DNA from: a virus
Lineage: Duplodnaviria; Caudoviricetes
Virus record (IMG/VR): IMGVR_UViG_3300050343_000159
DNA: 64,000 bases
Strand: one strand, 5' to 3'
This document shows positions 1 to 31,624 of this stretch, piece by piece (position 1 is the first letter of the stretch; the number at the start of each line of letters is the position of its first letter). The position numbers and the translations under genes were made by a program. The notes under the pieces were generated by a model. It did no database searches. It had not been told where the DNA came from and worked only from the letters and a program-made list of their open reading frames with translations.

Positions 1-352
1 AACTCTGGTGGTATTGCAATTGGTGAAGCTAAGACACTAAACTTTATTGGTAGTGGTAACACCTTCGCACAGAACGGTGATACTATTGATATCTCCATCT
101 CTGGTGGTAGTGGAGGAGGTGGTCTAGGAACCGCTATTAACTACAGTGATGAAACACCCACACCATTCAGTTACATTGACTCACATGTAACTGTAACTAG
201 TAACCTACTGATTGATACAGAGAACGCTGGATTAACCACATCCTATGTTGTATCAGTTGTTCCAAATGTTGAAGTTGCTTCTGGTGTTGCACTTACCGTT
301 GGAACTGTGTAAGACTATGATTATTGATATCCTACAGATCGGAGACCTCTGA
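1..352 (+). CDS. 3' end of a fibre-associated structural protein (partial; one indel near 308)
   Basis: Frame 1 is open from base 1 (NSGGIAIGEAKTLNFIGSG...GGGGLGTAINY...VALTVGT). After a shift it continues KTMIIDILQIGDL* with TGA at 350-352, which overlaps an ATG at 352. Confidence 0.6.
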
Positions 353-1859: not shown

Positions 1860-1870
1860 ATAACTAAAAA
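1856..1870 (+). promoter_or_regulatory. T4-type late promoter (ATAAATA core, extended ATAAATAACTAAAAA)
   Basis: Matches the T4 gp55 late consensus TATAAATA; 10 nt upstream of paralogue B. Confidence 0.7.
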
Positions 1871-1879
1871 TATAGATCT

Positions 1880-3688
1880 ATGTCAGGTTTAAGAGTAAAT
1901 ACTTTAAGAGGAGAGACATCAGGATCTTCTCCAACATTTCCTGATGGTGTCGTTGTAACTGGAGTTACCACTGCAACAAGTTTTAGTGGAAATGTAACTG
2001 GTAACGTAACTGGTAACGTAACTGGTAATATAACAGGAACCACAGGAACATTTACTGGCAATGTATCAGTTGGTGGAACACTAACATATGAGGATGTAAC
2101 TGATATTGATTCTGTTGGTGTTATAACCGCAAGAAGTGGAATTAGAATTGGTGCAGGTCAGAGTGTAAGTGCAGTCAGTGGTAATTGTTACATATTATGG
2201 TGATGGATCAAAATTATCTGGTGTTGAATCTGGTGTTGGTAATTTTGTAGCAAGTGGTGACATTGGTAATGGTCAAACAGTAATCATTAAAACAGATGGG
2301 ACTGTTGGTATTGTTACTCAACAGGTTCTGCAAATCCATCTGTTGGTAGTCTGTGATATTTAATGACTGCAGTGTTCTAACGGTACAGCATAGCATATGA
2401 TTCACTAATGCTGGTAAGTAGTTATTGCTTATAGGATAATAGTAACTGGTAAGTATGGTACAGCAATTGTTGGAACTGTAGATGCTAGTAATAATTCAAT
2501 TAGTTTTGGTTCTGAAGTTACGTTTAATAGTGGAGGTACTAATGAACCAATGTATGATGTAGTATTTGATTCCAATAGTAAAAAGTAGTTATTGCTTATG
2601 TTCATGAATATTGATGACTGGTGGTTCATGGTACAGCAATTGTTGGTACTGTATCTGGTACTAGTATTAGTTTTGGTTGTTGTCAGTATATAGGAGTGGA
2701 AATACTGCATCTACGGTTACAGCAGCATTTGACTCTACTAATAGAAAAAGTAGTTATTGCTTATAGGCATGATGATAGCAATAAAGGTAAAGCAATTGTT
2801 GGAACTGTAAGTCAGGTACATAGTATTAGTTTTGGTTCTGAAGTGAATTTTAATAACGGTGCAGAAACTAATACATACTGCAACAGTATTTGACTCTACT
2901 AATAATAAAGTAGTTATTTCTTATCAGGATGGTGGTAACTCTAATTATGGAACAGCAATTGTTGGAACTGTATCTGGTACTAGTATTAGTTTTGGTAGTG
3001 AATCAGTGTTCTAATAATGCCACTCAATATATGCAACATGTACATTTGACTCAACTAACAATAAAATAGTTATTGCTTATAGAGATAGTACTGGCAACAG
3101 TAACTATGGAACAGCGAGTTGTAGGAACTGTAAGCGGTACATCAATTAGTTTTGGTACTCCTGTTGTAGTATTGAATACTGCTAGTTCTACAAACCAATC
3201 ATCAGTATATGACTCAAATAATAATAAAAGTAGTTATTTCTTATAGAGATGATGGCAACTCTGATTCTGGTACAGTAATTGTTGGAACTGTTTCTGGTAC
3301 TAGTATCAGTTTTGGTTCTGAAGTAGTATTTAATAGTGGAAATACTGTTTATAATTCATGCACATTTGACTCTACTAATAACAAAACAGTTATTGCTTTA
3401 GGGATGTTCCCAACTCTAATTATGGAACAGCAGTTGTTTTTAGTAGTGATAGTTTAGTAACAAACCTAACTGCAGAAAACTATATTGGTATTGCAGCAGA
3501 AGCAATTTCTAATGGAGCAACTGGTAAAATTAATATTGTTGGTGGAGTAAATACAGGTCAAACTGGTCTTACTACAGCACAAACATATTATGTTCAAAAA
3601 TGGTACTCTTGCTACTTCTGCTGGTAATCCATCAGTAGTTGCTGGTACTGCTATATCAGACACAAAAGTCCTGGTATGGAAATCATAA
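1880..3688 (+). CDS. Propeller-fibre paralogue B (frameshifted many times in this sequence)
   Basis: N-terminal MSGLRVNTLRG...YEDVTDIDSVGVITARSG shaft. Seven propeller repeats can be traced at DNA level across shifting frames. Same C-terminal module, ending KS* at 3686-3688. Confidence 0.7.
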
Positions 3689-3699
3689 ATAACTAAAAA
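3685..3699 (+). promoter_or_regulatory. T4-type late promoter
   Basis: ATAAATAACTAAAAA upstream of paralogue C. Confidence 0.7.
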
Positions 3700-3708
3700 T
3701 ACCATCAG

Positions 3709-5534
3709 ATGTCAGATGTATTAGTTGACAATATAAAGAATAGAGCAGGTGGTGCTGTTGGAGCTCCATCTGGAGTAGTTGTTACTGGTGTTATTACTGC
3801 AACTAGTTTTGTTGGTTCTGGAGCATCACTTACAGGTATTGATGCCACTACACTAAAAGACTCTGGTGGTAATGTAAAAGTACAAGCAAATACATCTGGC
3901 ATAGTAGTTACTGGTGTTTCTACATTTAGTGGTAATGTATCAGTTGGCAAAACACTGACTTATGAAGATGTAACAAATGTTGATTCTGTTGGTGTTGTTA
4001 CTGCTAGAGCAGGTATTAAAATTGGTGCAGGGCAGAGCGTTTCCGCAGTCAGTGGGATTGTTACATATTATGGCGATGGATCAAAATTATCTGGTGTAGA
4101 ATCTGGTGTAGTTAATTTTGTTGCAAGTGGTGACATTGCTAATGGTCAGACAGTAATTATCAAAACAGATGGAACTGTTAGTACTGTTACTAGACAGGTT
4201 CTGCATATCCTATTGTTGGTTCTCTACTTTAGTTGCTAATCTGCTGGTGTTATGATGGATCATGCATATGACTAGCACCAACAATAAAGTAATTATTGCT
4301 TATAAGAAACTTTTAACTCTAATGATGGTACAGCAATTGTTGGTACTGTTTCTGGAAGTAGTATTACTTTTGGTACTGAAGTTGTATTTGCATCCGCTGG
4401 TGGACATGCTCACTGTTTCGGCAACATATGACTCTAACAGTGGAAAGTAGTTATTGCTTATAGAGATGGTGGTAACTCTGATCCGATGGTACAGCAATTG
4501 TTGGTACTGTTTCTGGAACATCAGTATTAGTTTTGGTACTAAAAGTTGTATTTCAAACTGGTAATATTGACTGATATCACATAACATATGACTCTACTAA
4601 TCAAAAAGTAGTTATTGCTTACTCAGGGATAACTGGCAACTGGGTACTCGTGGTAACAGCACTAGTTGGTACTGTATCTGGTACTGATATCAGTTATGGT
4701 TCTAAGGCAGTATTTAACAGTGGAAGTACTGGATTTGAATCATGTGCATTTGACTCTACTAATGGTAAAGTAGTAATTGCTTATAGGGATCAGGGCGACG
4801 GTAATCAGGGAAAATCAGTTGTAGGAACTGTTTCTGGAACATCAATTAGTTTTGGTAGTGAAGTTGTATTTAATAGTGGAGATACTAGATTGACAGCATC
4901 CACATTTGATTCCACTAATGGAAAAGTAGTTGTTGCCTATAGGGATTATGGCAACAACGAATATGGAACAGCAATTGTAGGAACTGTATCTGGTACTAGT
5001 ATTAGTTTTGGTTCTGAAGTGGTGTTTAATGCTGTTAATAGTACTAGTATTCAATGCACATATGACTCCACTAAAAGTAAAGTAATTATTATTTACAAGG
5101 ATAACAACCCAGAAAGTGGCAGAGCAATTGTTGGTACTGTAAGTGGAACTAGCATTAGTTTTAGTGCTGAGACAGAGTTTGAAGATGGAGGTGTTGCCTA
5201 CACCTCATGTGCATATGACTCTACTAATGAAAAAACAGTTGTTGTTTATCAGGATCCTGGTAACTCTAACTATGTCACATCTGCGGTCATTACTACTGAT
5301 AGTGTAATACCCAACCTAACTGCTGAAAACTATATTGGTATTGCAGCAGAAGCAATCTCTAATGGAGCAACTGGTAAAATTAATGTTCTCACTGGAACTA
5401 ATACAGGTCAAACTGGTTTAACAACAGCAAAGACATATTATGTTCAGAATAATGGAGGTATCAGCACATCACCTGGTAATCCATCAGTAGTTGCTGGTAC
5501 TGCTATATCAGACACAAAAATAGTAGTCAGATAA
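3709..5534 (+). CDS. Propeller-fibre paralogue C (frameshifted between ~4200 and 4650)
   Basis: ORF pieces 3709-4239 and 4650-5534 together give the same architecture as D. Seven propeller repeats counted. Confidence 0.75.
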
Positions 5535-5536
5535 GA

Positions 5537-5552
5537 TATAAATAACTAAAAA
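5537..5552 (+). promoter_or_regulatory. T4-type late promoter
   Basis: TATAAATAACTAAAAA upstream of paralogue D. Confidence 0.75.
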
Positions 5553-5561
5553 TACCATAAG

Positions 5562-7364
5562 ATGTCACAATTATTCGTTGACAATATAAAGAATAGATCA
5601 GGTGGTGCTGTTGGAGCTCCATCTGGAGCAGTTGTCACTGGTGTTGTAACTGCAACAAGGTTTGTTGGCTCTGGAACATCATTAACAGGTATTGATGCTA
5701 CTGCATTAAAAGACTCTGGTGGTAATATAAAAGTACAGGCAAATACCTCTGGTATAGTGGTTACTGGTGTATCAACATTTACTGCAAATGTTTCTGTGGG
5801 TGGAACACTCACCTATGAAGATGTAAAAAATGTTGATTCTGTTGGTCTTATTACAGCAAGAAGTGGAATTAGAATTGGCGCAGGTCAAAGTGTAAGTGCA
5901 GTCAGTGGGATTGTTACATATTACGGAGATGGATCACAACTTACAGGTGTTGAGTCTGGTGTATCCAACTTTGTAGCGAGTGGTACTATTGCTAATGGTC
6001 AAACAGTAATCCTTAAAACTGATGGAACTGTAACAGGTGTTGCGACTGCTGGTGCTGGAACAACTTTTTCACCATCAGCAACCAACTATAGTGGCACTAA
6101 TGTTTGTGAAAATCATATAGCAACATATGATACAGCCAAAGATAGAGTAGTTATTTTTTATAAAGATCAAACAGGTGTTAATGGTTTTGCAGTAGTAGGA
6201 ACAGTCTCAGGAACAACTATTACTTTTGGAACTCCAGTATCAGCAATCAGTTCTCGACCAGCATATCATGACGCATGTTATGATGTGGCTTCTGGTAAAA
6301 TTGTATATGCTTTTAGAGATGATAATGATAGTGATAAAGGTGCAGTTCTTATTGGAACTGTAGATGCCAGTAATAATTCAATAAGTTTTGGTTCCAAAGT
6401 AGTATTTGAATCATCAGGCCCCGTTTCTTGGCCTGAAATTGCATATGATGTCAATGCACAAAAAGTTGTCATTGCATATAGTCAAGGAAGTAGTTATGCA
6501 GGAAAAGCAATTGTTGGAACTGTAGTTGGAAATAGTATGACTTTTGGAAGTATTGCAACTTTAGCGACCAGACCCTATGGAAAAGATATTGTATATCATG
6601 AAGCAGCTCAAAAGGTAGTCGTTTTTTATAAAGATGATAATTCCAACAAAGGTAAAGCAAAAGTAGGAACTGTAAATGGCACATCAATTACCTTTGGTTC
6701 TGAAGCAGAATTTGAGTCTGGAAGCATCGACAGTAGTTGGGTTGAATCATCATATGATCCTGTAAATGAAAAAGTGGTTGTTATTTATAACTCCAGTAAT
6801 GGAAAAGCAAATGTAGGAACTGTAAGTGGAACATCAATCACTTTTGGTACTTCACAAGTATTTTCTTCTGGAAGCACTGCACAGTTAGCTGTAGTGTATG
6901 ATGTAAATGCAGCAAAAACCATTATAATTTACAACACTAATAGTGATGGTAAGATTCGTGAATCAACAATAAGTGCAACAACTATTACTTTTGGAGATGA
7001 GGTCACTTGGACTCCACTTTCTCAGGAATATCCAGGAGCAACATATAATACATCCCAAGGTGCAACAGTAATAGGATTTAAGAATCCTTCTAATTCTGGT
7101 AGAGGTGATGCTATTGTTTATAAAGCAGAACAAATCAGTACCAACCTAACTGCAGAAAACTACATTGGTATTGCTGCAGAAGCAATTGCTAATACAGCAA
7201 CTGGTAAGGTAAACATTCTAGGTGGAGTAAATACAGGTCAAACTGGATTAACAACAGCAAAAACCTATTATGTTCAACCTGGTGGTTCTCTTGCTACTTC
7301 TGTTGGCAATCCATCAGTAGTTGCTGGTACTTCTGTGTCAAATACAAAAATCTTGATTAGATAA
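5562..7364 (+). CDS. Propeller-fibre paralogue D (intact, 600 aa; most diverged blades)
   Basis: Uninterrupted ORF: shaft with YEDVKNVDSVG motif, seven YD..KVV-type blades, and the NYIGIAAEAI C-terminal module. Confidence 0.8.
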   Translation: MSQLFVDNIKNRSGGAVGAPSGAVVTGVVTATRFVGSGTSLTGIDATALKDSGGNIKVQANTSGIVVTGVSTFTANVSVGGTLTYEDVKNVDSVGLITARSGIRIGAGQSVSAVSGIVTYYGDGSQLTGVESGVSNFVASGTIANGQTVILKTDGTVTGVATAGAGTTFSPSATNYSGTNVCENHIATYDTAKDRVVIFYKDQTGVNGFAVVGTVSGTTITFGTPVSAISSRPAYHDACYDVASGKIVYAFRDDNDSDKGAVLIGTVDASNNSISFGSKVVFESSGPVSWPEIAYDVNAQKVVIAYSQGSSYAGKAIVGTVVGNSMTFGSIATLATRPYGKDIVYHEAAQKVVVFYKDDNSNKGKAKVGTVNGTSITFGSEAEFESGSIDSSWVESSYDPVNEKVVVIYNSSNGKANVGTVSGTSITFGTSQVFSSGSTAQLAVVYDVNAAKTIIIYNTNSDGKIRESTISATTITFGDEVTWTPLSQEYPGATYNTSQGATVIGFKNPSNSGRGDAIVYKAEQISTNLTAENYIGIAAEAIANTATGKVNILGGVNTGQTGLTTAKTYYVQPGGSLATSVGNPSVVAGTSVSNTKILIR

Positions 7365-7383
7365 TCATAGTGTCGCATACTTC

Positions 7384-7398
7384 CTAAATAACTAAAAA
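7384..7398 (+). promoter_or_regulatory. T4-type late promoter
   Basis: CTAAATAACTAAAAA upstream of 7405. Confidence 0.65.
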
Positions 7399-7404
7399 CA
7401 CATT

Positions 7405-8199
7405 ATGTCCAGGATACAAGTAGACAACATTTTTGATAAGGTAGGAACAGGAGCTCCTACCTTTCCTGCTGGACTAACTGGTACCACAGGATCCTTTACT
7501 GGTAATGTGTCAATTGGTGGTACATTATCATATGAAGATGTAACTAATATTGACTCAATTGGTATTATCACTGCAAGAAGTGGTGTTGATGCAAGTGGGG
7601 CAAATGTTGTACTTGGGTTGAGTGGCGGATCTAGTGATGATAGATTAAAGTTTCATACTTCTGAAATTTATCAAGATACGAGTAGTTTCAAAATTATTAG
7701 TAACACTGGTGGAATTGTTCTCAGAGGAGGTGGTACAAACGCTTGGTCAAATGCATCAGGGGCTGAGGATTATATAGTTGCTACTGAAAATGGTTCTGTA
7801 GATCTTTATTATGACAACTCCAAGAAATTTGAAACCACTAATACTGGTGTAACAGTTACTGGTGCAGTCAGTGACTCAATCGGTCCATTGAGAAGACTTG
7901 GAGTTAACGCTCAGAGTGGTGCCTATGCATTTGTTGTTGGTGATGCTGGAAAAATTATAAGGTCATCAGGGAGTGGTGCTGCTCTTACTCTCAACCAAAA
8001 CATATTCACTGCTGGTGATATGATTTCAGTCTTCAATGTCGGTAGTGGTAATAATACAGTCGTACAAGGTTCGGGAGTTACATTGTATAATACTGCTGAT
8101 GCAGCAACTGGAACTAGAACAATAGCAGCAAAAGGAATGTGTACAATTGTTTGTACTGCTTCTAATGAGTTTGCTATTTCTGGTTCACAATTAACATAA
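7405..8199 (+). CDS. Short tail-fibre shaft/adaptor protein (pair 1)
   Basis: MSRIQVDNI...GAPTFPAG N-terminus, YEDVTNIDSIG motif and LYYDNSKKFET shaft motif. Confidence 0.65.
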   Translation: MSRIQVDNIFDKVGTGAPTFPAGLTGTTGSFTGNVSIGGTLSYEDVTNIDSIGIITARSGVDASGANVVLGLSGGSSDDRLKFHTSEIYQDTSSFKIISNTGGIVLRGGGTNAWSNASGAEDYIVATENGSVDLYYDNSKKFETTNTGVTVTGAVSDSIGPLRRLGVNAQSGAYAFVVGDAGKIIRSSGSGAALTLNQNIFTAGDMISVFNVGSGNNTVVQGSGVTLYNTADAATGTRTIAAKGMCTIVCTASNEFAISGSQLT

Positions 8200-8213
8200 G
8201 GAGATATTTAGAT

Positions 8214-9623
8214 ATGATGCAACAAATGTTACTTAGTTATGGTGGAGCATCTAAGGATTATTGGTCTTTAGGATTCAGAGCAAATGCTTATGATTCATTA
8301 ACTGCTGCTGCCAGTAATGGTCCAAGAGTAGATAGTTCTGGTAATGTTTATTCTTCATTTTATTTTGATGATAGTTCAGGTAATGGTGAAGTACTTGCAG
8401 GTCTTTTAAAAACTAATTCTGAAGGTGTGCTCCAGTGGGCTAGAGGATATACTGATACTTCAACCACTGTTGCTAATTATGGATTTGATGTTTCAAGTTC
8501 AGGTACTATACTTCATTCTGTTAGAACTGGTAACAAATATATTGAACATCAACTATTAGCAACTGATGGGACTACCACCAGTTGGATTAAAAGAATTGGT
8601 AATGGACCATCTACTAGTGACAGAATTATGGGAGAATTTGGTGTTAGAATTGGTGCTTCTGGAGGACATTATCTAACTGGAAAGGATAAAGATAACATTA
8701 TAAGTAATGATAAATTAGCACTTTTTAAATTGGATGCTACAGGAGGCATATCTTGGTCTAGAGCTATTTATTATTCATCAGGTCAAGATGTAAAACCTGG
8801 TAGATCGTTTGGTATTGACTCATCTGAAAATACTTATCATTGTATGGAATATTATTTGATGCCTATGGCATCAAATGGTTATAAAAAAGCAAGCACTATT
8901 GCGAAATATAATAGTTCTGGCACATTACAATGGAAGCAAGAGTATAAAATTGGTAGTTCTGATACTAATTGGGATCTAATTGATCTTAAAGGACTTGTTT
9001 GTGATAGTTCTGGAAATAGTTATGCTTTTGGTAGATATGTCCAAGCTTCACTTTTCAGTGGTGCTATAGGTATTATAATTAAATCAAATAGTAGTGGTAC
9101 TCTCCAATGGATTAAGCAAGTTCCAAAAGACTCTGATGGTTATGGTGGAGAAGTAGAATATAGTGGATCTATTGATAGTTCTGGAAATCTGTATGTAAAC
9201 ACTACTGGACGCCATAACAGTGATAGAACTAGTGTAGTAGTACATAAATTCAATAGTAGTGGAGTAGCTCAATGGTCAAGAAAGTTATATTATAATGCGG
9301 CAGTTGTGGATATGCCTTGGGGTTTTTGTTCTGTTGATAGTAATGATAATTTGTATGTAACTGCATATGCAACTGTATCAAGTGTAAGAAGAGTTTATCT
9401 TATAAAAGTTCCTAGTGATGGTACAGAAACAGGTGATTATGGTAATGTAACTTGGGCTTCAACAACCACTACATCAGTTAGTGATGTAGCAAGTGGAACT
9501 GGTTATGCAACAAATGCAAGTCCTTTAAGTGAGGCTTCTTTAAGTCAAGTCACTGCAACAATCACTATGCCACAAACTAATGTATCTTCTCCCTCTCTCA
9601 ATAATACTAGTTATCGATCATAA
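8214..9623 (+). CDS. Beta-propeller adhesin-like protein (pair 1 tip)
   Basis: Repeated DSSGNxY and KxNSSGTLQWxK motifs typical of propeller repeats. Starts 14 nt after the shaft gene. Confidence 0.6.
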   Translation: MMQQMLLSYGGASKDYWSLGFRANAYDSLTAAASNGPRVDSSGNVYSSFYFDDSSGNGEVLAGLLKTNSEGVLQWARGYTDTSTTVANYGFDVSSSGTILHSVRTGNKYIEHQLLATDGTTTSWIKRIGNGPSTSDRIMGEFGVRIGASGGHYLTGKDKDNIISNDKLALFKLDATGGISWSRAIYYSSGQDVKPGRSFGIDSSENTYHCMEYYLMPMASNGYKKASTIAKYNSSGTLQWKQEYKIGSSDTNWDLIDLKGLVCDSSGNSYAFGRYVQASLFSGAIGIIIKSNSSGTLQWIKQVPKDSDGYGGEVEYSGSIDSSGNLYVNTTGRHNSDRTSVVVHKFNSSGVAQWSRKLYYNAAVVDMPWGFCSVDSNDNLYVTAYATVSSVRRVYLIKVPSDGTETGDYGNVTWASTTTTSVSDVASGTGYATNASPLSEASLSQVTATITMPQTNVSSPSLNNTSYRS

Positions 9624-9677
9624 ACATATAGCAAACTAATATATCTTCCCCTACTAAGGGAGATGTTGATTAACTAT

Positions 9678-9693
9678 TATAAATAACTGAAAA
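9678..9693 (+). promoter_or_regulatory. T4-type late promoter
   Basis: TATAAATAACTGAAAA upstream of 9705. Confidence 0.75.
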
Positions 9694-9704
9694 GTGGATA
9701 AAAG

Positions 9705-20599: not shown

Positions 20600-21071
20600 A
20601 TGAAATATATTGCGACTAAGAATATTACTATCAATACAAAGATTGGCACTAAGGTTAAAACTCTTCAGTTGGTTCTTGATAAGGTTGTATCACCATCAAA
20701 ACTAAAAGAATTATCTAAACGACAGATTAGAGAGTACACCAAAGAAGTATATGAAGGTGCAGATCTGTCATTCTTGACACCAGAAGACAAGAAGTATTAT
20801 AATAAACATAAGAAAGACCCTGATATGCAATGGGCGCTTGATATGGTATATGAAGAACAAGGAACAACCAACTAATTCAAACATACTGACACCGAAACCA
20901 CCTAAAAATGGTTTTATTGTTGGTGCTTGGGATGACCCAGAGATGTATGCCTGTGTGCCTATTGGTGGTAGGTTGATGATTATCCATCAAGGAAAACAAC
21001 TCAAAGTATGTAATAATGGTGATAGTGCTCGTAACTTTATTGACAAACACAAGAAACGTAGAAAGAAATAA
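20600..21071 (+). CDS. Two small hypothetical genes (20600-20875 and ~20838-21071)
   Basis: Overlapping + strand ORFs in the ORF track. Confidence 0.45.
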
Positions 21072-21118
21072 TATCACTCACCTCTAAATTGCTCTACTGA
21101 TGTAAGACACACGAACAA

Positions 21119-21346
21119 ATGACACACTCCTCCACAGGTCAACGAGTTGGAACCCTTACTGAACTTGCTGAACTAAAGAAAACATATCGTAAACAGGATT
21201 TTAAGTTTACTCAAGATCAACGTCAACGATATGATTTGCTCCTAGAACTTCGTCGTAGTCATGTTGCTGAATACTATGAAGATGGTTTAGTTTGGATTGG
21301 TCCATCGATGGCAGGTAAGAAACTAGAAGAGGATGACGCAGAATGA
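21119..21346 (+). CDS. Hypothetical protein (cassette 1)
   Basis: ATG 14 nt after repeat copy 1. Two further short ORFs follow before copy 2. Confidence 0.55.
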   Translation: MTHSSTGQRVGTLTELAELKKTYRKQDFKFTQDQRQRYDLLLELRRSHVAEYYEDGLVWIGPSMAGKKLEEDDAE

Positions 21347-21672
21347 TTACTCTCAAACGTGTATGTTCACTGAAGACTAAACAACTTCGGTGGACATATG
21401 ATGGTAAAGTTCTTCTCAAGTCATATGAAGTTGCTACCATTGGTAGAAAGAATAAACTTCAAAAACTTCAATCATTATGAACATCTATGATATCACAGTT
21501 TATACTGGACACATCAAAGAAAGGATTGAGGTTAGAGCTCTCAACACGGCACATCTTAAGAAAAGAGTTGATGGTTTAGGATATGATCGTTATGGAACTA
21601 TCCATAAAGTTCGTCCTGAATAATATTACTCACCTCCAAACTGCTCCACTACTGTAAGACACTTCAACCACT

Positions 21673-22563
21673 ATGGCAAACACACATCTCCCACATCCAG
21701 AAGATACCATCCTCACGGGTGATCTGAGAGCATTCAGAGATCTTTATGGACCTGGACATGTGTCCCTTAAGATTGACGGTGCTCCCTCTATTGTGTGGGG
21801 TAAACATCCAGAAACTGGTCGGTTCTTTGTGTGTACTAAAGCGGCATTTAACAAGAAAAAGAATCGTATCTGTTACAACAACGAGGATGTTCATACTCAC
21901 TTCGGTCATCAACAAGATGTAGCAGACATGCTATTCTTGATGTTGAAGTATATTCCCCGTGACATCTTCACTGGTGTTTATCAGGGTGACTTCATGGGTT
22001 TCGGTCGTACCGATGCTTTCATGAACAACACTCTAACTTATGTGTTTCCTGAAGTTATTCAACAAAAACTTGTCATCGCACCTCACACAATCTATGATGT
22101 AGTTGGTAAGTTGTCTGACGCAGTTGCTGAACCTCTCCGTGAGGTATTCAGTGACACTCCACACATCAAGTGGGTTCAACCTTCTGTCGATTTCATTCAT
22201 CAGAATGTCAAACCTCCTGTGTTCGATCTCAGTAAGGTTCAGTTTATGTCTGACAAAGAGTCATTCGTAGCTCAACAACAGGTCAACGCTCTTATCAAGT
22301 CAGGTCAAACACCCGAAGATTGTGATCTTAACTGGATTCTAGGTGACAACTTCCTCACCAATCTGTATCAGTTGTTGATTGACATCAAAGAAGATCTCAT
22401 GAAGTCTATGATTGTTCATGACTCTCCTAAGTGTTATCTTCCTGATGGGACTGAGGTTGTGGGTGAGGGTTTCGTGTTCTATTCTGAGTCTGGTCGTTCC
22501 TACAAACTCGTTGATCGTCCTGTGTTCGCATATACTAACTTCACCACTGGTAAGTTCAACTAA
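21673..22563 (+). CDS. Ligase-like nucleotidyltransferase-fold protein (cassette 2)
   Basis: KIDG (motif I-like KxDG), EGFV (motif IV-like) and YKLVDR (motif V-like); N-terminal THLPHPED. Confidence 0.55.
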   Translation: MANTHLPHPEDTILTGDLRAFRDLYGPGHVSLKIDGAPSIVWGKHPETGRFFVCTKAAFNKKKNRICYNNEDVHTHFGHQQDVADMLFLMLKYIPRDIFTGVYQGDFMGFGRTDAFMNNTLTYVFPEVIQQKLVIAPHTIYDVVGKLSDAVAEPLREVFSDTPHIKWVQPSVDFIHQNVKPPVFDLSKVQFMSDKESFVAQQQVNALIKSGQTPEDCDLNWILGDNFLTNLYQLLIDIKEDLMKSMIVHDSPKCYLPDGTEVVGEGFVFYSESGRSYKLVDRPVFAYTNFTTGKFN

Positions 22564-22624
22564 CTAGAAGGGGTGATAATATTACTCACCCCTAAATTGC
22601 TCCATCTATGTAAGGTTACACACC

Positions 22625-23010
22625 ATGGATCCAATCACAATTTCAAGATCACACTATGACACTATTGTTGAGAGTGTAGAGGAAGTTCTCAAAGTTCTCA
22701 ACAAAGTGAACTATGATTGTGATTCTTTAGATCCCAAAAACGTTTGTTACACAGCACCATATGCTGTTGGATATTCACAAGGTGTAGTATCCCAAATTCT
22801 CTCTAACCTCAAAACAATCAAGGAGAACAACTAATGAATTCCACCATGGAAAATGTGATCGATGTGATGGGTGAAACCTATTTCAGTAGGTTCATGGACT
22901 TTGTAGATAATGAGGATTTAGAAACATCAAAGGCACTCATGGATGAGTGGATTGTTGATGGTCAAGATCCTCAAGATGGTGGAGTCGAGTTCATCTGGTT
23001 AGAAGAATGA
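22625..23010 (+). CDS. Two small hypothetical genes (22625-22834 and 22834-23010; cassette 3)
   Basis: First ATG follows repeat copy 3; TAATG stop/start coupling to the second gene. Confidence 0.55.
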
Positions 23011-23546
23011 TGAGGTTACTTCAAAAGATCACATCAAGTGCTATTGGTCTATCACTTCTTACAATTCCAGGTGTGAGTGCAAAGATAGATTCAAGTCATG
23101 ATGAACTAAAAAGAGCTCTGAATGATGTAGGTGTTGAAGTTTTCTTGAATGACACAGAGTTATGTAATGGTAGTAAATCTGGTATGTATTCTCCTGACTA
23201 TGATGCAATTATGATATGTCAGGACGATAGAATTGAAACATCAGATCAAGAGGTTGAATGGACAGAAAATGATTATGATACTTTGAGACATGAATCACAA
23301 CATGTTGTTCAGGATTGTATGGAAGGAATTGATAATAGTAAGATGTCACTATTTTTTAGTGACGAAATAGAATATCTGGAGTTTGTGATCATGGGTTTGA
23401 CAAAATCAGAATTCTTTCAGATTGTCGAGGCATATCGACCACTTGGCAATGATGTTCTCTTGAATGAATTGGAGGCATTTGCTGTAGCTAAAGGTGTAAA
23501 ACCTGACACTATTGCTAAAGCTGTTCGTGGTATATGTAAGAATTAA
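23007..23546 (+). CDS. Secreted-type HEXXH protein, distant paralogue of 18700-19371
   Basis: Signal-like N-terminus, LRHESQHVVQDC and NELEAF motifs. Confidence 0.6.
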   Translation: MMRLLQKITSSAIGLSLLTIPGVSAKIDSSHDELKRALNDVGVEVFLNDTELCNGSKSGMYSPDYDAIMICQDDRIETSDQEVEWTENDYDTLRHESQHVVQDCMEGIDNSKMSLFFSDEIEYLEFVIMGLTKSEFFQIVEAYRPLGNDVLLNELEAFAVAKGVKPDTIAKAVRGICKN

Positions 23547-23600
23547 AGTTACTCACCACTAAATTGCTCCAGTAGTGTAACCACTCACCAAACACACATC

Positions 23601-24087
23601 ATGGGAACTAGAGGCAGAATCGGAATCAAACTTATCGATGGTTCAATTCTTTCGGCATATCACCACTGGGACTCATATCCTCAGTGGTTGGGTGTTAAAC
23701 TCGTCGAGAACTTTAATTCACAAGAACTAGCATCTGATCTGATTGATGGAGGTGACATGTCCGCATGTTATTCTACTCACACTTGGGGTTCTGAACCTCT
23801 CAGACAGGAAGTGATTCAACCCGATGGATCTGTCACCAAGTTTGAGTATGTTCATGAACAAAGATGGTGAGACTGTTTACACTAAAGTCAAGGCAGAAGC
23901 ATCACCTCAGTATTACTCAGAACGGGGTGAGGACACTCCTCCACGTTTAGATAAGGATCTCTTTGAGTTCCTTGATAAAGGTGAAGAATACGCATATATC
24001 TGGGAAGAAGGTTTCTGGACTTGTTATGATCTTCATCAGTTTGATGATCAAGAACCTGAAATCGTAGAAATCCCTCAAGTTCTCTGA
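23601..24087 (+). CDS. Phage hypothetical protein (cassette 4; one frameshift near 23865)
   Basis: MGTRGRIGI...YHHWDSYPQWLG joins ...EEYAYIW in the second ORF piece. Confidence 0.6.
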
Positions 24088-24155
24088 TAACTGAGGTGGG
24101 TAGATTGTTACTCACCTCTAAATTGCTCCACTCTATGTAACCACACATTCAAACC

Positions 24156-24541
24156 ATGATTAACTACCTCGTCAAATGTCCATCCGATCCTTATGAGAAT
24201 ACCGATTGTTTCGGTGATCTTGATAGGGCATGGGATCTCTGTTACAACCTCTCTGAAGAGTATGGATACGCAGAGGTTGGATATTATAATGTCAAAGGAC
24301 ATTATCAACTCGTAGGTGACTACACTAACGGTCGTTAATATGAACTACACTAAAGAGCAACTTGATGGATGCACTTGTTCATGAGTGGGAATATCTCTGT
24401 CATGACGATTATGATCCACAAGATCCAACACCAGAACAATATCGCAAAGAGATGGAAGAACTCACAATCGAACAATTGATTGAAGAGACTGACACAGGTG
24501 AGGGATTTACATTAGAAGATTTCATGGATGTTCACAGCTAA
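24156..24541 (+). CDS. Two small acidic hypothetical genes (24156-24338; 24340-24541 frameshifted; cassette 5)
   Basis: First ATG follows repeat copy 5. Confidence 0.5.
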
Positions 24542-24594
24542 TAAAGTTACTCACCTCTAAACTGCCCCATTGATGTAACCACACACTTCAAACC

Positions 24595-24954
24595 ATGAGA
24601 AAGATCGAAACCCAAATGATCGAAGCAATCAAACAAGATAAGGATTGGAAATCAGGTAATACTAAGGTTGTCAATTTCTTCAATGATGGTGACAAATGTG
24701 TCGTCACTTCTGTCTTCCTTCATGGTAACAAGATTGCAGAGATTGATGACAACTCTATGACAATCTTCGATGGTGGTCGGCAATCAGTTACAACAAAGTC
24801 TAGAATCAACGCACTTTGTGATGAATTTTGTATCAGTGGAGAAGGAGTCTTTCAGAAAAACTTTCAGTGGTATGTAAGAAAGTTTGTAGGAATGGCAGGA
24901 CAAAGTAAAGTCTATAATGTCGATGATTTCTCCAATGGTTATATCTTCTCATGA
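24595..24954 (+). CDS. Hypothetical protein (cassette 6)
   Basis: MRKIETQMIEAIK...LHGNKIAEI; follows repeat copy 6. Confidence 0.6.
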   Translation: MRKIETQMIEAIKQDKDWKSGNTKVVNFFNDGDKCVVTSVFLHGNKIAEIDDNSMTIFDGGRQSVTTKSRINALCDEFCISGEGVFQKNFQWYVRKFVGMAGQSKVYNVDDFSNGYIFS

Positions 24955-25022
24955 TATGATTAGGTGAGTAGATTGTTACTCACCTCTAAACTGCCCCACT
25001 ATTGTAATCACTCATTCAACTC

Positions 25023-25359
25023 ATGACACCCACTCAAACTAAAATCGAATTCCTCACTGACGCATTCATCGAACAAGTTAATAATCTTTGGAAACTTAAC
25101 ATAACCAAATTTGGTTCTTATTCTAAGTTAGACTATAGTGTAGGTAAAAAATATATCAAAGTGAAAAACACTAGGATGCACCGTCATGATTTAACCACAA
25201 GATAACGGTGTGTTCATGTTCATCGACAAAGAGACTGGTGCATGTTACAAACCCGCATCATTCAAGACACCTGCTAAAGGTATTCGATTCCAGATTGAGC
25301 AGTTAGTTGAGAACCCTGAGATTGTAGATCATTATGGTTCTTTCCTCTATGTTCGTTGA
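25023..25359 (+). CDS. Hypothetical protein (cassette 7; frameshift near 25200)
   Basis: ...GKKYIKV... continues after the shift as VFMFIDKETGACYKPASFKTPAKGIRF...FLYVR*. Confidence 0.55.
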
Positions 25360-25423
25360 ACTTATGGGGTGAGATTATTACTCACCTCTAAAGTGCATCA
25401 TCTATGTAATTCTGTTTTATCTC

Positions 25424-25621
25424 ATGACATTTCTCAACTGGGTTCAAGAAGCAACTGGATGTAAAGTAGAGGACGAAAGAACCGGTATGATTCACACTAT
25501 TACCGGTGGTAAGTTCCTCGCTGATTCACCTCTCTGGCCCATGATTGAACTCACCGATGAGACTGGTGTTGTCAGATTCGCAACCTTAGATAGGTTTGAG
25601 GAAATGATTTCGGTGGGGTAA
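25424..25621 (+). CDS. Hypothetical protein (cassette 8)
   Basis: Follows repeat copy 8 and is followed by a terminator. Confidence 0.55.
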   Translation: MTFLNWVQEATGCKVEDERTGMIHTITGGKFLADSPLWPMIELTDETGVVRFATLDRFEEMISVG

Positions 25622-25634
25622 GACCCCTTTTTTT
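25615..25634 (+). terminator. Intrinsic terminator
   Basis: GGGGT-AAG-ACCCC followed by T7. Confidence 0.65.
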
Positions 25635-25861
25635 GCCCTTTGATAGATGATACAGGTGCACTATTCTTGGTTCAATGGTGGAGAGGGTTTTCAAAGTGTT
25701 AAAAACTGTTTTTTCCATAATTTCGTCTGAGATGACCTATGACACCCTCACCCCACTGAAACCACCTAGAAATCGATTTATGACACCTTACAGAGGATGT
25801 ATGATATAATATTGTTACTCACCTCTAAATTGCTCCATCTATGTAAGACACACTTCAAACC

Positions 25862-26427
25862 ATGAAACCAGTTCTCATCATCATCATCGGTATTCTTCTT
25901 TGGCAATCCGCTGATGCTAGACAATTCACGTCTAACGCATTACAATCAGCAAGTGATTTTATTGAACCAAACCAACAACATCGTATCAATCTTTCTTTCT
26001 GAGTTAACATCATGTTTGAATGGAAAGTAACACTATCCAAGGGTGGAAGACACATCAAAGTTAATGTCTTCGCCGAAAGTACACGAAGAGCGTATAAACA
26101 AGCAGAGGATCTTTACCCCAACACAAAGGCACTCAACGCAACACAAGTATGAACCACCACATTTATCACTTGACAAACACACAATTGCCAGAACCATTGT
26201 GTCATCAGTTAGCACCATTTATTTCTGCATATCGTCCACATGATAAGCCTCCGACCAAGAAAGATATGGATCAAGATGATTACAAACCACAGGAATCGCC
26301 TTTATCTAAAGAGAACATCATTGACACGTATAAAGCGATTAAGTATTCACAAGACCTTGAATGGTTAAAGTTAAAAAGAGAGTATAATAAGAAGTGGAGT
26401 GGATATCGAACATATTACAATCTATGA
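25862..26427 (+). CDS. Three small genes of cassette 9 (25862-26002, 26012-26152, 26149-26427)
   Basis: The first is a 46 aa signal-peptide-like ORF, MKPVLIIIIGILLWQSADARQF..., read by hand after repeat copy 9. Confidence 0.45.
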
Positions 26428-26483
26428 GTATTAAAGTTACTCACCTCTAAATTGCACCATCTACATAACCACTCATTCAAACC

Positions 26484-26738
26484 ATGACTAACACAACTTT
26501 CCAAACCACAATCGAAGACACCACGTATAATGGATGGACAAACTATGAGACCTGGAATGTAGCACTCTGGATTGGTAATGATCGAAGGTTTGTATAACCT
26601 AGCACGTCGTTGTTATCGTATCAAGATTTCGTTGATCGTTATATGGAAGAAGGTGATACAACTTTAGATGGAGTAAAGTGGGATGATGTTAATCTTAATG
26701 TTAGTTGAACTTGATGAAATGATGGAGGAACTTTGATC
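26484..26738 (+). CDS. Hypothetical protein NGWTNYETWNVALW family (cassette 10; frameshifted)
   Basis: Hand translation MTNTTFQTTIEDTTYNGWTNYETWNVALWIGND..., with indels near 26582 and 26700. End coordinate approximate. Confidence 0.5.
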
Positions 26739-28079
26739 ATGTCATTAATCAAAACACATCTTCAGACTACTATGAATTCCGATCTTGAAATGTTATCACA
26801 AAGAGAAACACTAATGGAGGATATTGATTCCATATGTGTTGGTCAACAATTCTTGAAATTTTGGTTGAGAACTTCCCCGATAGATAATGATCAATACAAA
26901 GATGATTAATTCGTATGCTATGTGATGCTGTCTGTACCAACTTCCCCACTAACTAACAAACTCATGAATGACTTTCCAATCTACAAGAAACAACTCCCAC
27001 AAATCTGGATGGAGGATGATAAGTTTATTATCGAATCATCATCATTCCGATATGTAATAGAAGACGACTTAAAACTCTTATTCAAGTTATGTCGTCGTTT
27101 TAAATCTGAAGCAATTAAACAAACATACAATCATGAGTAACATTCACATCAATCAACACTATGTTAAGTTCAATACAAAAGAACTAAAAAGGTTAATTGA
27201 AATCATTACAATTAATAAGGAAGAAGATATGTTAGTAGTGAAAGATAGGATAGAACAAGTATTAGGTATGAAGGAAGATCCAATCGATAAGTTTCATAAA
27301 ACAATAAGGTATTATGATGATAAGTGATTACATTACAATAACAACATGGGATGAAAAGTATCAATGTATAGATACAGATATGTTCATAAGAGTATAGACA
27401 AACCAAAGGAATATGTCCTAAGTTTATACCCAGAAGAACGTCTATTGTAGTCACTTAGTAACCCCAGATATACCGAGTAGTGTACACACAGTAACCACGG
27501 AGTAACTGTCACTATTCGGTAACAATTTATACCAAATATCATTAAAAAACATTAAAAAAGGTTTATTTAAATGTATTAGTGCGTTTTTACTAGTTCAAAT
27601 AAGGTCTTAGAAAAGTGTTATAAATACCCGATTTTATTGTTAGAAACCTTCTGATAAATGGTCTCAGTTATTGTTATCTTAGGTCGTAACCTACCGATTG
27701 TCAAGCACACAACGCCCAGAAATCTCACTGGCACAAAATATTACACAGAACCCCTATTTTCTCATATAATGAACATAAGAGAACAAAAAACATTTATGAG
27801 TCTTTTCACCATGTTGTTTGCAATTGTATCAGTAGTTGCATTCATTTCCACATCACACTTATGAGAGGTAGATTGTTACTCACCTCTGAAGTGCCCCTAT
27901 AGTGTAAGGGGGTTGATTCCTTCCCTCTCATTGTTTCTCCCTTCGGGACTTCTCTGAGAGTGTTGACTATCTCCCCGAGGCATGACACACAAGTCAGTAA
28001 GCACACCTCTCACCAAATCCTTAAGAGTTATTGTTACTCACCACCAAACTGCCCCATTGATATGAATCACACTTCAACC

Positions 28080-28685
28080 ATGACCTTCTCACAAGTCCTC
28101 GATCAAGTCCCTACATTCTACGAAGAGATGGAGGGAGATCTCGAAATGGTAATCGACTTCGTTGAGAGTCAGTTAGGTAGAGATGTAACAGATACAGAGA
28201 TCGACCAAATTGACACTGTTATGGAGACAGTATAATGACACTTACAGAACGTAACAACATCCTCCATGATTTACGTGAGAGAATGATATATCACAGACGA
28301 CAGGAAGAGTTCTACAGGGAGAGGATTCAATGGACTAATCAACAGTATAAGAGACAAGAGATAGACAACCTATATGATGAGCTCTTCGAATCATACGGTG
28401 AGCCAGATGAATCAACAGGGTGGAACTAATGAGTACTTTATTACTATTTCTCTTCATCGGTTATGTGTGTTGGACTAACATGAAGGTCCGAGCATTCATC
28501 AGTAACAAACTACTCAAACTCTCCAACTTCTTCGCACCATGAGAATCATTCTACTAGGTTTCTTCACTCTCATGGGTGTTAACATGTTTGTCACAGTTAT
28601 GAACTCAGACATGGCAAATAAGATGGAAGAGAGGAACGAAGCACTAGAGAGGTTGATGTCACCACCCTCCACAGAGATACGATAA
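28080..28685 (+). CDS. Four small genes of cassette 12 (28080-28235, 28235-28429, 28429-28542, 28539-28685)
   Basis: Translationally coupled (TAATG/ATGA) short ORFs after repeat copy 12; the last two are hydrophobic. Confidence 0.5.
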
Positions 28686-29120: not shown

Positions 29121-29193
29121 GCTTCCTTAGCAATCTGGTGAATGCAGCAAACTCATAATTTGCCTAAGGTGAGTTCGATCCTCACAGGAAGCA
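29121..29193 (+). tRNA. trnM: tRNA with CAT anticodon (elongator Met or Ile2); CCA not encoded
   Basis: Folded by hand: acceptor GCTTCCT/AGGAAGC + A73; D arm GCAA-TCTGGTGAA-TGC; anticodon stem GCAAA/TTTGC with loop CT-CAT-AA; T arm GTGAG-TTCGATC-CTCAC. G1-C72 pair argues against initiator tRNA. Confidence 0.92.
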
Positions 29194-29215: not shown

Positions 29216-29244
29216 TTGACAGAATCCCCCACAGAGGTTATAAT
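29216..29244 (+). promoter_or_regulatory. Perfect sigma70-type (early) promoter
   Basis: TTGACA (29216-29221), 17 nt spacer, TATAAT (29239-29244). Confidence 0.85.
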
Positions 29245-29278: not shown

Positions 29279-30195
29279 ATGCCTGCTATTAAAGAGAGAA
29301 AGAAGTATCCAAATTGTCTGAGGTATCCTGGAGGTAAGTCAAGGATTATCCATTATCTCTTCAGACAGAATATGATACCTTCACAGATCAAGGAGTATCG
29401 GGAAGGGTTCTTAGGTGGTGGTAGTTGTGCACTTGCATTCTCTACGATGTATCCAGGGACTCCTGTATGGGTGAATGATCTTTATTATAATCTGTATTGT
29501 TTCTGGACACAGTTACAGAATAACTCAGATAGTCTCACAAATCGTATATTAGAATTAAAAGATAAAGCTTGTGTTGCTACTGATGTTACTGAGTTAGAAC
29601 AGAAACACAGAGATCTCTATGGAGAGATGAGAGAGTTAATCAATACTTCTACAGATCCACATGATCTTGCAACCGCCTTTTATATTCTGAACCGGTCGTC
29701 CTTTGGGGGATTTACAGAACAGAATAAGAATGCGTTTATTCGTGACTCTTATAAGAATACAATCTTCAATCAGGTTAAGATTAAAAAATTACCGGAGATT
29801 TCATCAATTATACAACCATGGCGGATTACGAATGGGGACTACAGGGATTTGATGACGGCTCCTGGTGAGGATGTCTTTGTATTCTTGGATCCACCATATC
29901 TGATTAAGGATATGTTATATGGTAAGAACAAGGAGATGCATACGGGTTTTGTTCATGAAGACTTTGTTAAGCTTGTAAGGATACCCCACATAACTGGATG
30001 ATCACCTATAATGAACATCCATGGTTACGTGAACAGTTTGCTGATTATCATATGGAAACATTTGAGTTTCGGTATTCACTTGCACATCGTAAAGAGAATG
30101 GCAACAAGAAAGAAGAGTTATTGGTAATGAACTATCAACTTCCGCGTCAGTTGGAAGAAAATAACATTCTTTCAGAACTACTAGATAACGTGTAA
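29279..30195 (+). CDS. dam: DNA adenine methyltransferase, Dam/D12 class (one frameshift near 29975)
   Basis: LRYPGGKS, FLGGGS (SAM binding) and DPPY (catalytic) motifs. The C-terminal part (MITYN...ELLVMNY) is in ORF 29998-30195. Confidence 0.85.
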
Positions 30196-30619: not shown

Positions 30620-31408
30620 ATGGCCAAAGGATTTACAGTAAAAGCAGCAAAGCCCAATACTACTAAGAAAGCTAGTTCAGAACCTGAATGGGATATTGAC
30701 GCAATCAAAGAACGAATGCGTGGTAAGACAATTGTCTTCTGTCTTCCAGGTCGTGGATGTTCATTCACTTTCCTGAAGAACTTTGTACAATTGTGTTTTG
30801 ATATGGTTCAAAACCAAATGAGTATTCAGATCTCACAAGACTATAGTTCCATGGTGAACTTTGCTCGTTGTAAGTGTCTGGGTGCTAATGTACTTCGTGG
30901 ACCAGATCAGATTCCCTGGGATGGTAAACTAGAGTATGATTATCAGTTGTGGATTGATAGTGATATTGTCTTCAATACAGAGAAGTTCTGGCAACTCTGT
31001 GATATGGCAATCCCAGCTGAAGGTGAAGAGAAACAAATTGTCAGTGGTTGGTATGCTACTGAAGATGGACGTACTACATCAGTTGCTCACTGGTTGGATG
31101 AAGATGACTTCCGTAATAACGGTGGTGTCATGAATCATGAGATGGTTGATGGTATTCAGAAACGTAAGAAGCCTTTCACTGTTGATTATGCAGGGTTTGG
31201 TTGGTTGATGGTTAAGAAGGGTGTGTTTGAACATCCTGAGATGAAGTATCCATGGTTCGCTCCTAAGATGCAAGTCTTTGAATCTGGAGCAGTTCAAGAT
31301 ATGTGTGGTGAAGATGTATCCTTCTGTTTGGATGCTATCGAAGCTGGTATTGAGATCTGGTGTGATCCTCGTATCCGTGTTGGACATGAGAAGATGAGAG
31401 TCATTTGA
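30620..31408 (+). CDS. Glycosyltransferase-like conserved protein
   Basis: LWIDSDI (DxD), GFGWLMVKKGVF, GEDVSFC and VGHEK resemble a GT-A fold. CTAAATA late promoter at 30572-30578. Confidence 0.6.
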   Translation: MAKGFTVKAAKPNTTKKASSEPEWDIDAIKERMRGKTIVFCLPGRGCSFTFLKNFVQLCFDMVQNQMSIQISQDYSSMVNFARCKCLGANVLRGPDQIPWDGKLEYDYQLWIDSDIVFNTEKFWQLCDMAIPAEGEEKQIVSGWYATEDGRTTSVAHWLDEDDFRNNGGVMNHEMVDGIQKRKKPFTVDYAGFGWLMVKKGVFEHPEMKYPWFAPKMQVFESGAVQDMCGEDVSFCLDAIEAGIEIWCDPRIRVGHEKMRVI

Positions 31409-31477
31409 TAAACTGTCACAGAGGGTCCTAGGATCCTCTCTAACCCCTTTATAATATACAAGTAGACATAACACACT

Positions 31478-31624
31478 ATGGCAAAGTTCAAACGTTCACT
31501 GATGGGTGGAACCTTCATTGAAACCAAGCCCAAGAAAACACGACAGGGTTCAGGACAACATACCAAGTACGCAGCTAGTTCTAGTAATAGTAAACCCAAA
31601 CGTTACCGAGGACAAGGACGTTAA
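31478..31624 (+). CDS. Small basic protein (48 aa)
   Basis: Hand translation MAKFKRSLMGGTFIETKPKKTRQGSGQHTKYAASSSNSKPKRYRGQGR*. Confidence 0.6.
   Translation: MAKFKRSLMGGTFIETKPKKTRQGSGQHTKYAASSSNSKPKRYRGQGR

Follow-up and report, generated by a model that had tools for sequence, protein, structure and literature searches.

A repeated element ahead of small-gene units in marine T4-like cyanophages: a probable clade-specific promoter cassette and a preferred seam for cassette shuffling

Promoter-early stem-loops (PeSLs) have been described in the T4-type phages RB49/phi1, T4/PST and KVP40/nt-1 (Arbiol et al. 2010, PMC2839356; Comeau et al. 2014, PMC4122927). In a study of a cyanophage, the density of PeSLs in S-PM2 was judged too low for a PeSL mechanism (PMC4503421). 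Cyanomyoviruses lack motA, asiA, alt and modA/B (PMC2984593). Here, we analysed a stretch of 64,000 nucleotides (hereafter the window) from the IMG/VR virus record IMGVR_UViG_3300050343_000159, in which a conserved element recurs 12 times in an array of small genes; an earlier note, made from the letters of this stretch alone, had drawn attention to it. The phage is a marine T4-like cyanomyovirus (Kyanoviridae), and its nearest isolates share only ~75-82% nucleotide identity with it, over short stretches. In our view the 12 repeats are probably all copies of a promoter cassette specific to one clade of T4-like cyanophages; they would also be the crossover sites at which whole gene units are shuffled.

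The repeated element and its family

Searching the window with TTACTCACCTCTAAAYTGCYCCA at ≤3 mismatches returned 12 matches, all on the + strand, which start at 21074, 21626, 22582, 23549, 24108, 24547, 24976, 25378, 25815, 26437, 27876 and 28034; in 100 dinucleotide-preserving shuffles there were 0 matches. A looser query (the first 15 nt, ≤2 mismatches) found the identical 12 sites and zero extra in 64 kb, and all of them fall within ~7 kb. As seen in the logo of environmental copies, the conserved part of the element is ~39 nt long and consists of A-W-T-A-W-W-G, a 23-mer, N4 and TGTAA. Successive copies are 158-1439 bp apart. In 11 of the 12 cases an ATG lies 11-20 nt past the terminal TGTAA and opens an open reading frame (ORF) of 37-296 aa. 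The leaders of these head genes are CA-rich, nearly G-free and unstructured, and a Shine-Dalgarno sequence is present in 0-1 of the 11 head genes compared to 6 of the 17 internal genes of the units, most of which overlap or abut the preceding stop codon. The array genes are small and of unknown function. The 12 positions and the single orientation given in the earlier note were therefore exact, as were its statements that the element occurs nowhere else in the window, that 11 of 12 copies have an ATG ~11-20 nt downstream behind a leader lacking a Shine-Dalgarno sequence, and that the units measure ~160-1440 bp. Its length for the element (~32 bp) was too short, and its 1-4 genes per unit became 0 to ~6 when counted.

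The element belongs to a family, and the layout common to all variants is TTAsTyACCTCnAAA-N12-TGTAA. The exact 19-mer was found in 42 IMG/VR contigs, which hold 249 copies (≤5 mismatches) on one strand per contig, and the layout pattern was found in >120 further viral contigs among the matches listed, these being marine viral contigs. Recognisable variants also stand ahead of runs of small genes in the isolates S-B05 and P-TIM68. Anchoring on the 15-nt box alone gave 614 unique copies at 130 loci, just one of which has copies on both strands; the consensus of the 614 is AAAG-TTACTCACCTCcAAAgTGccCca-TAgTgTAA-cac, and ~70% of them have an ATG 10-20 nt after the element. In the complete genome of P-TIM68, 10 of 10 strict copies lie at 47.1-56.1 kb, and in that of S-B05, 12 of 14 lie at 31.7-40.4 kb and 2 at 156 kb; in both phages the family is essentially limited to a single ~9-kb stretch of small genes ahead of the baseplate genes. 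There are 0 family copies in the Syn9 and P-TIM40 genomes, and the family is lacking in S-RIM12 as well. Since the core proteins of the window phage are 55-75% identical to those of P-TIM68 and S-B05 and 30-50% identical to those of Syn9 and P-TIM40, the element family tracks the clade. In 185,579 prokaryote species genomes, a search with the 19-mer, which did not extend to degenerate host sites, gave a single isolated match, to a metagenome-assembled Pantoea genome. No description of this element family was found in the accessible literature; Doron et al. 2016 and Fridman et al. 2017 lay outside that search and may show it.

The copies in the window are listed below; letters for cassettes refer to the clustering of units described in the next section, and three entries include the upstream arm of a hairpin.

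Copy 1: 21067..21105, + strand; 2 mismatches; heads cassette L (genes 21119-21346, 21343-21480 and 21477-21623).
Copy 2: 21619..21657, + strand; heads cassette A, a single 296-aa gene at 21673-22563 (DUF6267).
Copy 3: 22575..22613, + strand; an upstream arm GGGGTGA pairs with the variant box TCACCCC; heads genes 22625-22834, 22834-23010 and 23007-23546.
Copy 4: 23542..23580, + strand; heads genes 23601-23870 and 23824-24087.
Copy 5: 24092..24140 including the upstream hairpin arm, + strand; GAGGTGGGTA, loop GATTG, dG (folding free energy) -15.7; 5 nt instead of 4 before TGTAA; heads genes 24156-24338 and 24365-24541.
Copy 6: 24540..24578, + strand; heads a one-gene cassette, 24595-24954 (Pfam Kyano_Gp96).
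Copy 7: 24962..25007 including the upstream hairpin arm, + strand; AGGTGAGTA, dG -13.0; heads genes 25023-25205 and 25216-25359.
Copy 8: 25366..25409 including the upstream hairpin arm, + strand; GGGGTGAG, dG -13.3; heads genes 25424-25621 and 25675-25809.
Copy 9: 25808..25846, + strand; heads genes 25862-26002, 26012-26152 and 26149-26427.
Copy 10: 26430..26468, + strand; terminal CATAA in place of TGTAA; heads the longest unit (1439 bp), with gene 26484-26597 and ~5 more small genes, to 27864.
Copy 11: 27869..27907, + strand; 3 mismatches; an orphan; the 126 nt up to copy 12 contain no ORF.
Copy 12: 28027..28065, + strand; TGTAA box degenerate; heads genes 28080-28235, 28235-28429, 28429-28542 and 28539-28685.

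The orphan arrangement of copy 11 is also present in a relative (G001), in which the 126 nt are kept at ~94% identity. The stretch behind this copy has no tRNA match and no Rfam match, and its fold is no better than that of shuffles (z = -0.4). The segment 27876-28033 may encode a small RNA or be what is left of a lost cassette. Within the longest unit, ~330 nt (27328-27657) are without a convincing + strand ORF, and a late-type TATAAATA lies at 27619, just before the array gene 27658-27864; this one array gene may be expressed late.

Cassette shuffling among relatives

To compare gene order, sequences were cut at the elements and the units were clustered by their head gene. The order in the window is L A I G B E C H Ab D S T. 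From this order, close relatives differ by the loss of E, the insertion of O, the replacement of G by U or the replacement of Ab by M-Aa, and a second group of relatives has the orders K B A F C D and D E J, which are true permutations.

Two junctions could be followed to the nucleotide. A 429-bp cassette with the Kyano_Gp96 gene (24547..24975, + strand) is present or absent among relatives and lies between copies 6 and 7, which have the same 23-nt core. Where the window has this cassette, four relatives have a single element (L035:6384, L003:4951, L025:3858 and L030:2648), which begins with the upstream flank of copy 24547, continues through the common 23-nt core and is completed by the 3' portion of copy 24976 with its leader. 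By its composition, this junction is the exact product of a crossover between the two direct repeats around the cassette. At the second junction, L003 and L035 carry an extra cassette relative to the window, and the window copy 25378 consists of the upstream flank of L003:5358 and the core and leader of L003:5599. The crossover position differs between the two, since it may lie anywhere in the core at the first junction and lies at the 5' edge of the core at the second.

The same tendency was seen over the whole set of loci. In an all-against-all comparison, over half of the left homology ends were located at most 20 nt from the start of an element. With the window as reference, homology breaks occurred at 131 of 180 locus-by-element boundaries (73%) compared to 82 of 191 element-free gene boundaries (43%), counts that include many closely related contigs and so are inflated and not independent; the per-boundary means were 0.73 and 0.43 (Mann-Whitney p=0.005, and p=0.02 for in-array boundaries only). 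The array region was also present in marine RNA libraries (22 marine RNA runs, taken as Logan contigs, which are assembled and not raw reads), and loose ends of environmental contigs lie at both edges of copy 24547. Joints in the metagenome and metatranscriptome contigs that run backwards, as mini-circles formed between neighbouring elements might give, look no different from rearranged relatives. In the second group of relatives, the genes of the 24108 unit are reversed (L041:7978-8419, L006, L016 and L040), with the order being the 24365-24541 homologue, an element and the 24156-24338 homologue; the breakpoint, at 24338-24365, is not at an element. Taken together, these results show, at the level of sequence comparison, that the elements have a role as recombination seams, and that they are the preferred seams and not the only ones. 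The view in the earlier note that the element is a homology anchor for cassettes is thus well supported by the two chimeric junctions and by the difference in break frequency, and the comparison of cassette order between relatives that it had suggested yielded indels, replacements and permutations.

As to mechanism, the general homologous recombination of the phage would cross over inside the near-identical direct repeats, and such crossovers would delete, insert, replace or reorder whole self-expressing units. By analogy with T4-type phages, in which recombination needs only short homology (PMC2839356), general homologous recombination acting on ~23-40 nt of identity would be enough.

The promoter reading and its rivals

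The layout of the family resembles a promoter. In 71% of the 614 family copies there is a TAnnnT box at +22..27 (TATAGT) or +24..29 (TAGTGT), which falls 16-18 nt after the -35-like TTACTC. As judged from these motifs, the family layout is of sigma-70-type geometry (TTACTC, 16-18 nt, TATAGT/TAGTGT). Hundreds of copies show almost no variation in the 15-nt box, a degree of conservation far beyond what a -35 hexamer needs.

Comparison with other clades points in the same direction. The array block is the counterpart of the Syn9 gp63-gp93 cluster, which stands before a baseplate wedge gene, and four cassette genes of the window have homologues in that cluster. In Syn9, S-RIM12 and P-TIM40, the equivalent gaps hold a different repeated element, a palindrome at a fixed distance from TATAAT/TATAAG; in P-TIM40 (50.3-55.1 kb, L206-L215), a 22-24-nt palindrome (GTGCCAnTT...AGTGGCAC), ACTACCG and TATAAT follow one another at fixed spacing and head small genes. 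The gene of the Kyano_Gp96 family (24595-24954 in the window) is headed by the present element in the window, in P-TIM68 (gp075) and in S-B05. In Syn9 (gp90) and P-TIM40 it follows the palindrome-plus-TATAAT element, and in S-RIM12 an ordinary sigma-70-like promoter. In addition, on an environmental contig an S-RIM12-type element precedes the 26484 gene (loose end at 26480). In a 2016 study, Doron and colleagues reportedly tied a 'novel regulatory element' to the early genes of Syn9 and P-TIM40, and this is presumably the palindrome-plus-TATAAT element described here. Since the block matches the small-gene cluster of Syn9 and P-TIM40 in position and, in part, in gene orthology, the units are probably early genes. 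Position, orientation, geometry, block location and orthology together suggest that the element probably acts as a promoter and does so early in infection.

A single unit of the other type was seen in the window at 31414-31477, where TGTCACAGAG, a near-perfect 20-nt palindrome (AGAGGGTCCTAGGATCCTCT) and TATAAT precede a 48-aa gene (31478-31624) with conserved counterparts in P-TIM68, S-B05, P-TIM40 and Syn9; the TGTCACAGAG box is found in Syn9 too, before gp90. The window phage may hold both element types. Direct homology between the present element and that of Syn9 was considered and rejected: GCCCC is common to both, but its distances from the -10 differ.

The surroundings of the array show further promoter types. 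Upstream lie tail-fibre-like and structural genes with late ATAAATAACTAAAAA motifs. The array itself covers 21.07-28.7 kb and is followed by a tRNA-Met gene, a Dam-type methyltransferase gene and the baseplate block, with gp6-like, gp8, neck and gp15 genes downstream. Perfect TTGACA-(17/18)-TATAAT promoters are found at 20774-20803 and at 29216-29244; the latter (TTGACA-17-TATAAT) lies just past the tRNA-Met gene (29121-29193) and before the gene of a D12-class adenine methyltransferase (29279-30001). Because the window has both sigma-70 promoters and late ATAAATAACTAAAAA motifs, the element would form a third promoter class, which would give the window phage at least three promoter types, the element being neither of the host-like nor of the late type. 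A late-promoter reading of the element, based on the likeness of TCTAAAT to TATAAATA, was discarded, since copies of the S-B05 type vary the T before AAA. At 1500-9700 there is a series of paralogous fibre-like genes, whose 3' ends and late-promoter regions (..ATAAATAACTAAAAA..ATG) repeat nearly verbatim before 1880, 3709, 5562 and 7405.

Several observations weigh against the element being a promoter and crossover site. Among the window-type copies (TGCyCCA type, n=155), TAnnnT is found in 0% at +22..27 and in 25% at +24..29, and the critical A at -11 is mostly gone. Since the TAnnnT of the -10 is eroded there, host sigma-70 alone seems an unlikely reader of the element in this lineage; a scan of the window for the sigma-70 consensus does not call the element copies as promoters. 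One copy, 27876, heads no gene. Breakpoints also occur at element-free gene boundaries, for example at 24365, 26739 and 27133. The ends of RNA contigs coincide with the repeats, as de Bruijn assembly would yield anyway, and the early timing of the Syn9 and P-TIM40 clusters is taken from what Doron and colleagues reportedly found in their 2016 study. The description of the element as a non-canonical promoter in the earlier note fits the window lineage alone, in which the -10 has eroded; it does not fit the family at large with its sigma-70-like geometry. TGTAA, however, is kept in the window lineage although the -10 has decayed.

An extra reader protein, host-derived or injected by the phage, is proposed to bind the 15-nt box, because the box is nearly invariant and the window lineage has lost the -10 consensus. 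By analogy with the MotA box of T4 middle promoters, a box-binding factor would be the likely reader. The domain of T7-like RNA polymerases (PF00940) was not found in S-B05, P-TIM68 or Syn9, with the control genomes silent as well; the element bears a resemblance to T7 and T3 promoters (TAAT..ACTCAC). A search for the reader by phyletic pattern had no power, being confounded by phylogeny, as dozens of proteins share the pattern of P-TIM68 and S-B05. Directly after the array in the window, P-TIM68 and S-B05 there is a 262-aa protein (30620-31408 in the window), which is 73-85% identical in P-TIM68 and S-B05, a conservation above that of the baseplate proteins, and which has no counterpart in Syn9 or P-TIM40. 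Pfam gave no hit for it, and it was set aside as a candidate reader because its neighbours in a protein language model are viral GT2-like glycosyltransferases.

Some copies are accompanied by a stem-loop. Of the 12 copies in the window, 5 have an upstream arm that base-pairs with their 5' half (dG -13 to -15.7). Among 215 environmental copies, 13.5% fold at ≤-12 kcal/mol compared to 0.5-1.8% in two controls, and 33% fold at ≤-8 kcal/mol compared to 10-15% in the controls. The stems include G.T pairs, and at copy 22582 the arm matches the variant box. These features suggest that the upstream transcript carries a hairpin at its 3' end. There is no T-run after the element hairpins, and the two canonical terminator-like sites of the region lie elsewhere. 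The stem-loop is a facultative add-on and not a constant module.

The hairpins raise the question of whether the element acts in the RNA of long polycistronic messages, as a processing or stabilising site or as an enhancer of translation starts, and not as a promoter. The excess of hairpins over the controls, present in ~1/3 of copies, would fit such a role, the G.T pairs and the arm that co-varies with the variant box at copy 22582 fit RNA better than DNA, and the unstructured, CA-rich leader without a Shine-Dalgarno sequence is in keeping with it. However, two thirds of the copies are free of a hairpin and there is no conserved pairing inside the element; its invariant blocks are spaced as a -35 and a -10, with TAnnnT in most of the family; 15 contiguous near-perfect bases are more typical of a protein-DNA site; and other clades put a clear palindrome-plus-TATAAT promoter at the equivalent spot before the same gene. 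We regard an RNA-level signal as improbable. It is also quite improbable that the element is chiefly an operator array, for example for a repressor that closes the block after the early phase, with weak nearby sequences as the true promoters. The element carries much more information than a sigma factor needs, the 15-nt box stays invariant while the -10-like part drifts, and in some copies the box is lengthened into an inverted repeat (GGTGAGTA...TACTCACC), the kind of site favoured by dimeric binders. A pure operator, however, would not need the strict orientation and the narrow distance to the ATG, and no other promoter-like signal recurs in the 50-60 nt gaps; moreover, an operator overlaps with the factor-dependent promoter, which needs a binder too.

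At the level of recombination, the copies could be integron-like attachment sites served by a dedicated recombinase. The cassettes are bounded by one repeat in one orientation, and the gain and loss of units is exact, as expected of site-specific recombination. Against this, the complete genomes of S-B05 and P-TIM68 are without a tyrosine or serine recombinase (Phage_integrase and Resolvase domains; controls gave hits), and none was seen among the larger window ORFs that were examined. Unlike attC, the element lies at the 5' end of the unit, by the start codon, and the crossover point differs between the two junctions. We rate a dedicated recombinase as highly improbable.

In the explanation we favour, a promoter cassette with the consensus (A)AAG-TTACTCACCTCyAAA-N12-TGTAA, each copy would occupy the short interval between the stop codon of one gene group and the next group, into which it would fire rightwards. 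The transcript would be expected to start ~5-9 nt after the TGT of TGTAA, the first gene of the unit would have a very short leader (~5-18 nt) without a Shine-Dalgarno sequence, and the later genes would be translationally coupled. A wider proposal, which we offer tentatively and hold to be rather doubtful, is that the cyanophage clades each have a different, mutually exclusive, high-information family of early promoters for the same gene block, each with its own factor (injected or borrowed from the host), that the window lineage has dropped the -10 consensus altogether, and that the elements are portable seams, so that any gene placed behind one would be expressed at once. The seam role would explain how small host-takeover genes can be traded without breaking their expression, and the near-invariant 15-nt box before each unit of a probable early block offers a concrete bait for its reader protein.

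Comparison with known systems

The likeness to the T4 middle promoter, in which a MotA box at -30 is combined with a sigma-70 -10 and the sigma factor is appropriated by AsiA/MotA, is an analogy only: in both cases an invariant box replaces the -35 at a similar distance from a -10-like element, an arrangement that implies an additional reader protein. The box sequences are unrelated, and the present units are probably the earliest genes and not middle genes.

The reportedly early element of Syn9 and P-TIM40 occupies the same genomic block and the same spot upstream of gene starts, and it heads at least one orthologous gene (the Kyano_Gp96 family). The element of Syn9, P-TIM40 and S-RIM12 is a ~22-bp palindrome (GTGCCA...TGGCAC type) at a fixed distance to a clear TATAAT/TATAAG, whereas the element studied here lacks a palindrome, is built on another invariant box and has a weak -10.

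Among known systems, the PeSL comes closest. Like PeSLs, the present elements are short, conserved and repeated regulatory cassettes of one orientation in hyperplastic regions. They stand directly upstream of small genes of mostly unknown function, here with 12 copies in 7 kb between tail-fibre-like and baseplate genes. As with PeSLs, indels and replacements between close relatives have crossovers within the elements, and phage lineages differ in the element sequence. In contrast, PeSLs read TTGACA-N17-TATAAT or close variants, a consensus from which the present element departs, and the present stem-loop, found in ~1/3 of copies, uses the element's own 5' half as an arm, has no U-tract and is not a separate terminator module. 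The host and clade, marine Kyanoviridae, are also new. Because the element appears to lack the sigma-70 consensus and has no constant terminator stem-loop, it is not filed as a member of the PeSLs. The earlier note had called the system equivalent to PeSLs and sequence-distinct from them; the equivalence holds for the seam role and the placement and fails for the constant stem-loop. Taken together, the exact chimeric junctions show that modular shuffling in the style of PeSLs takes place in abundant ocean phages too, where it had been deemed unlikely for a cyanophage (PMC4503421).

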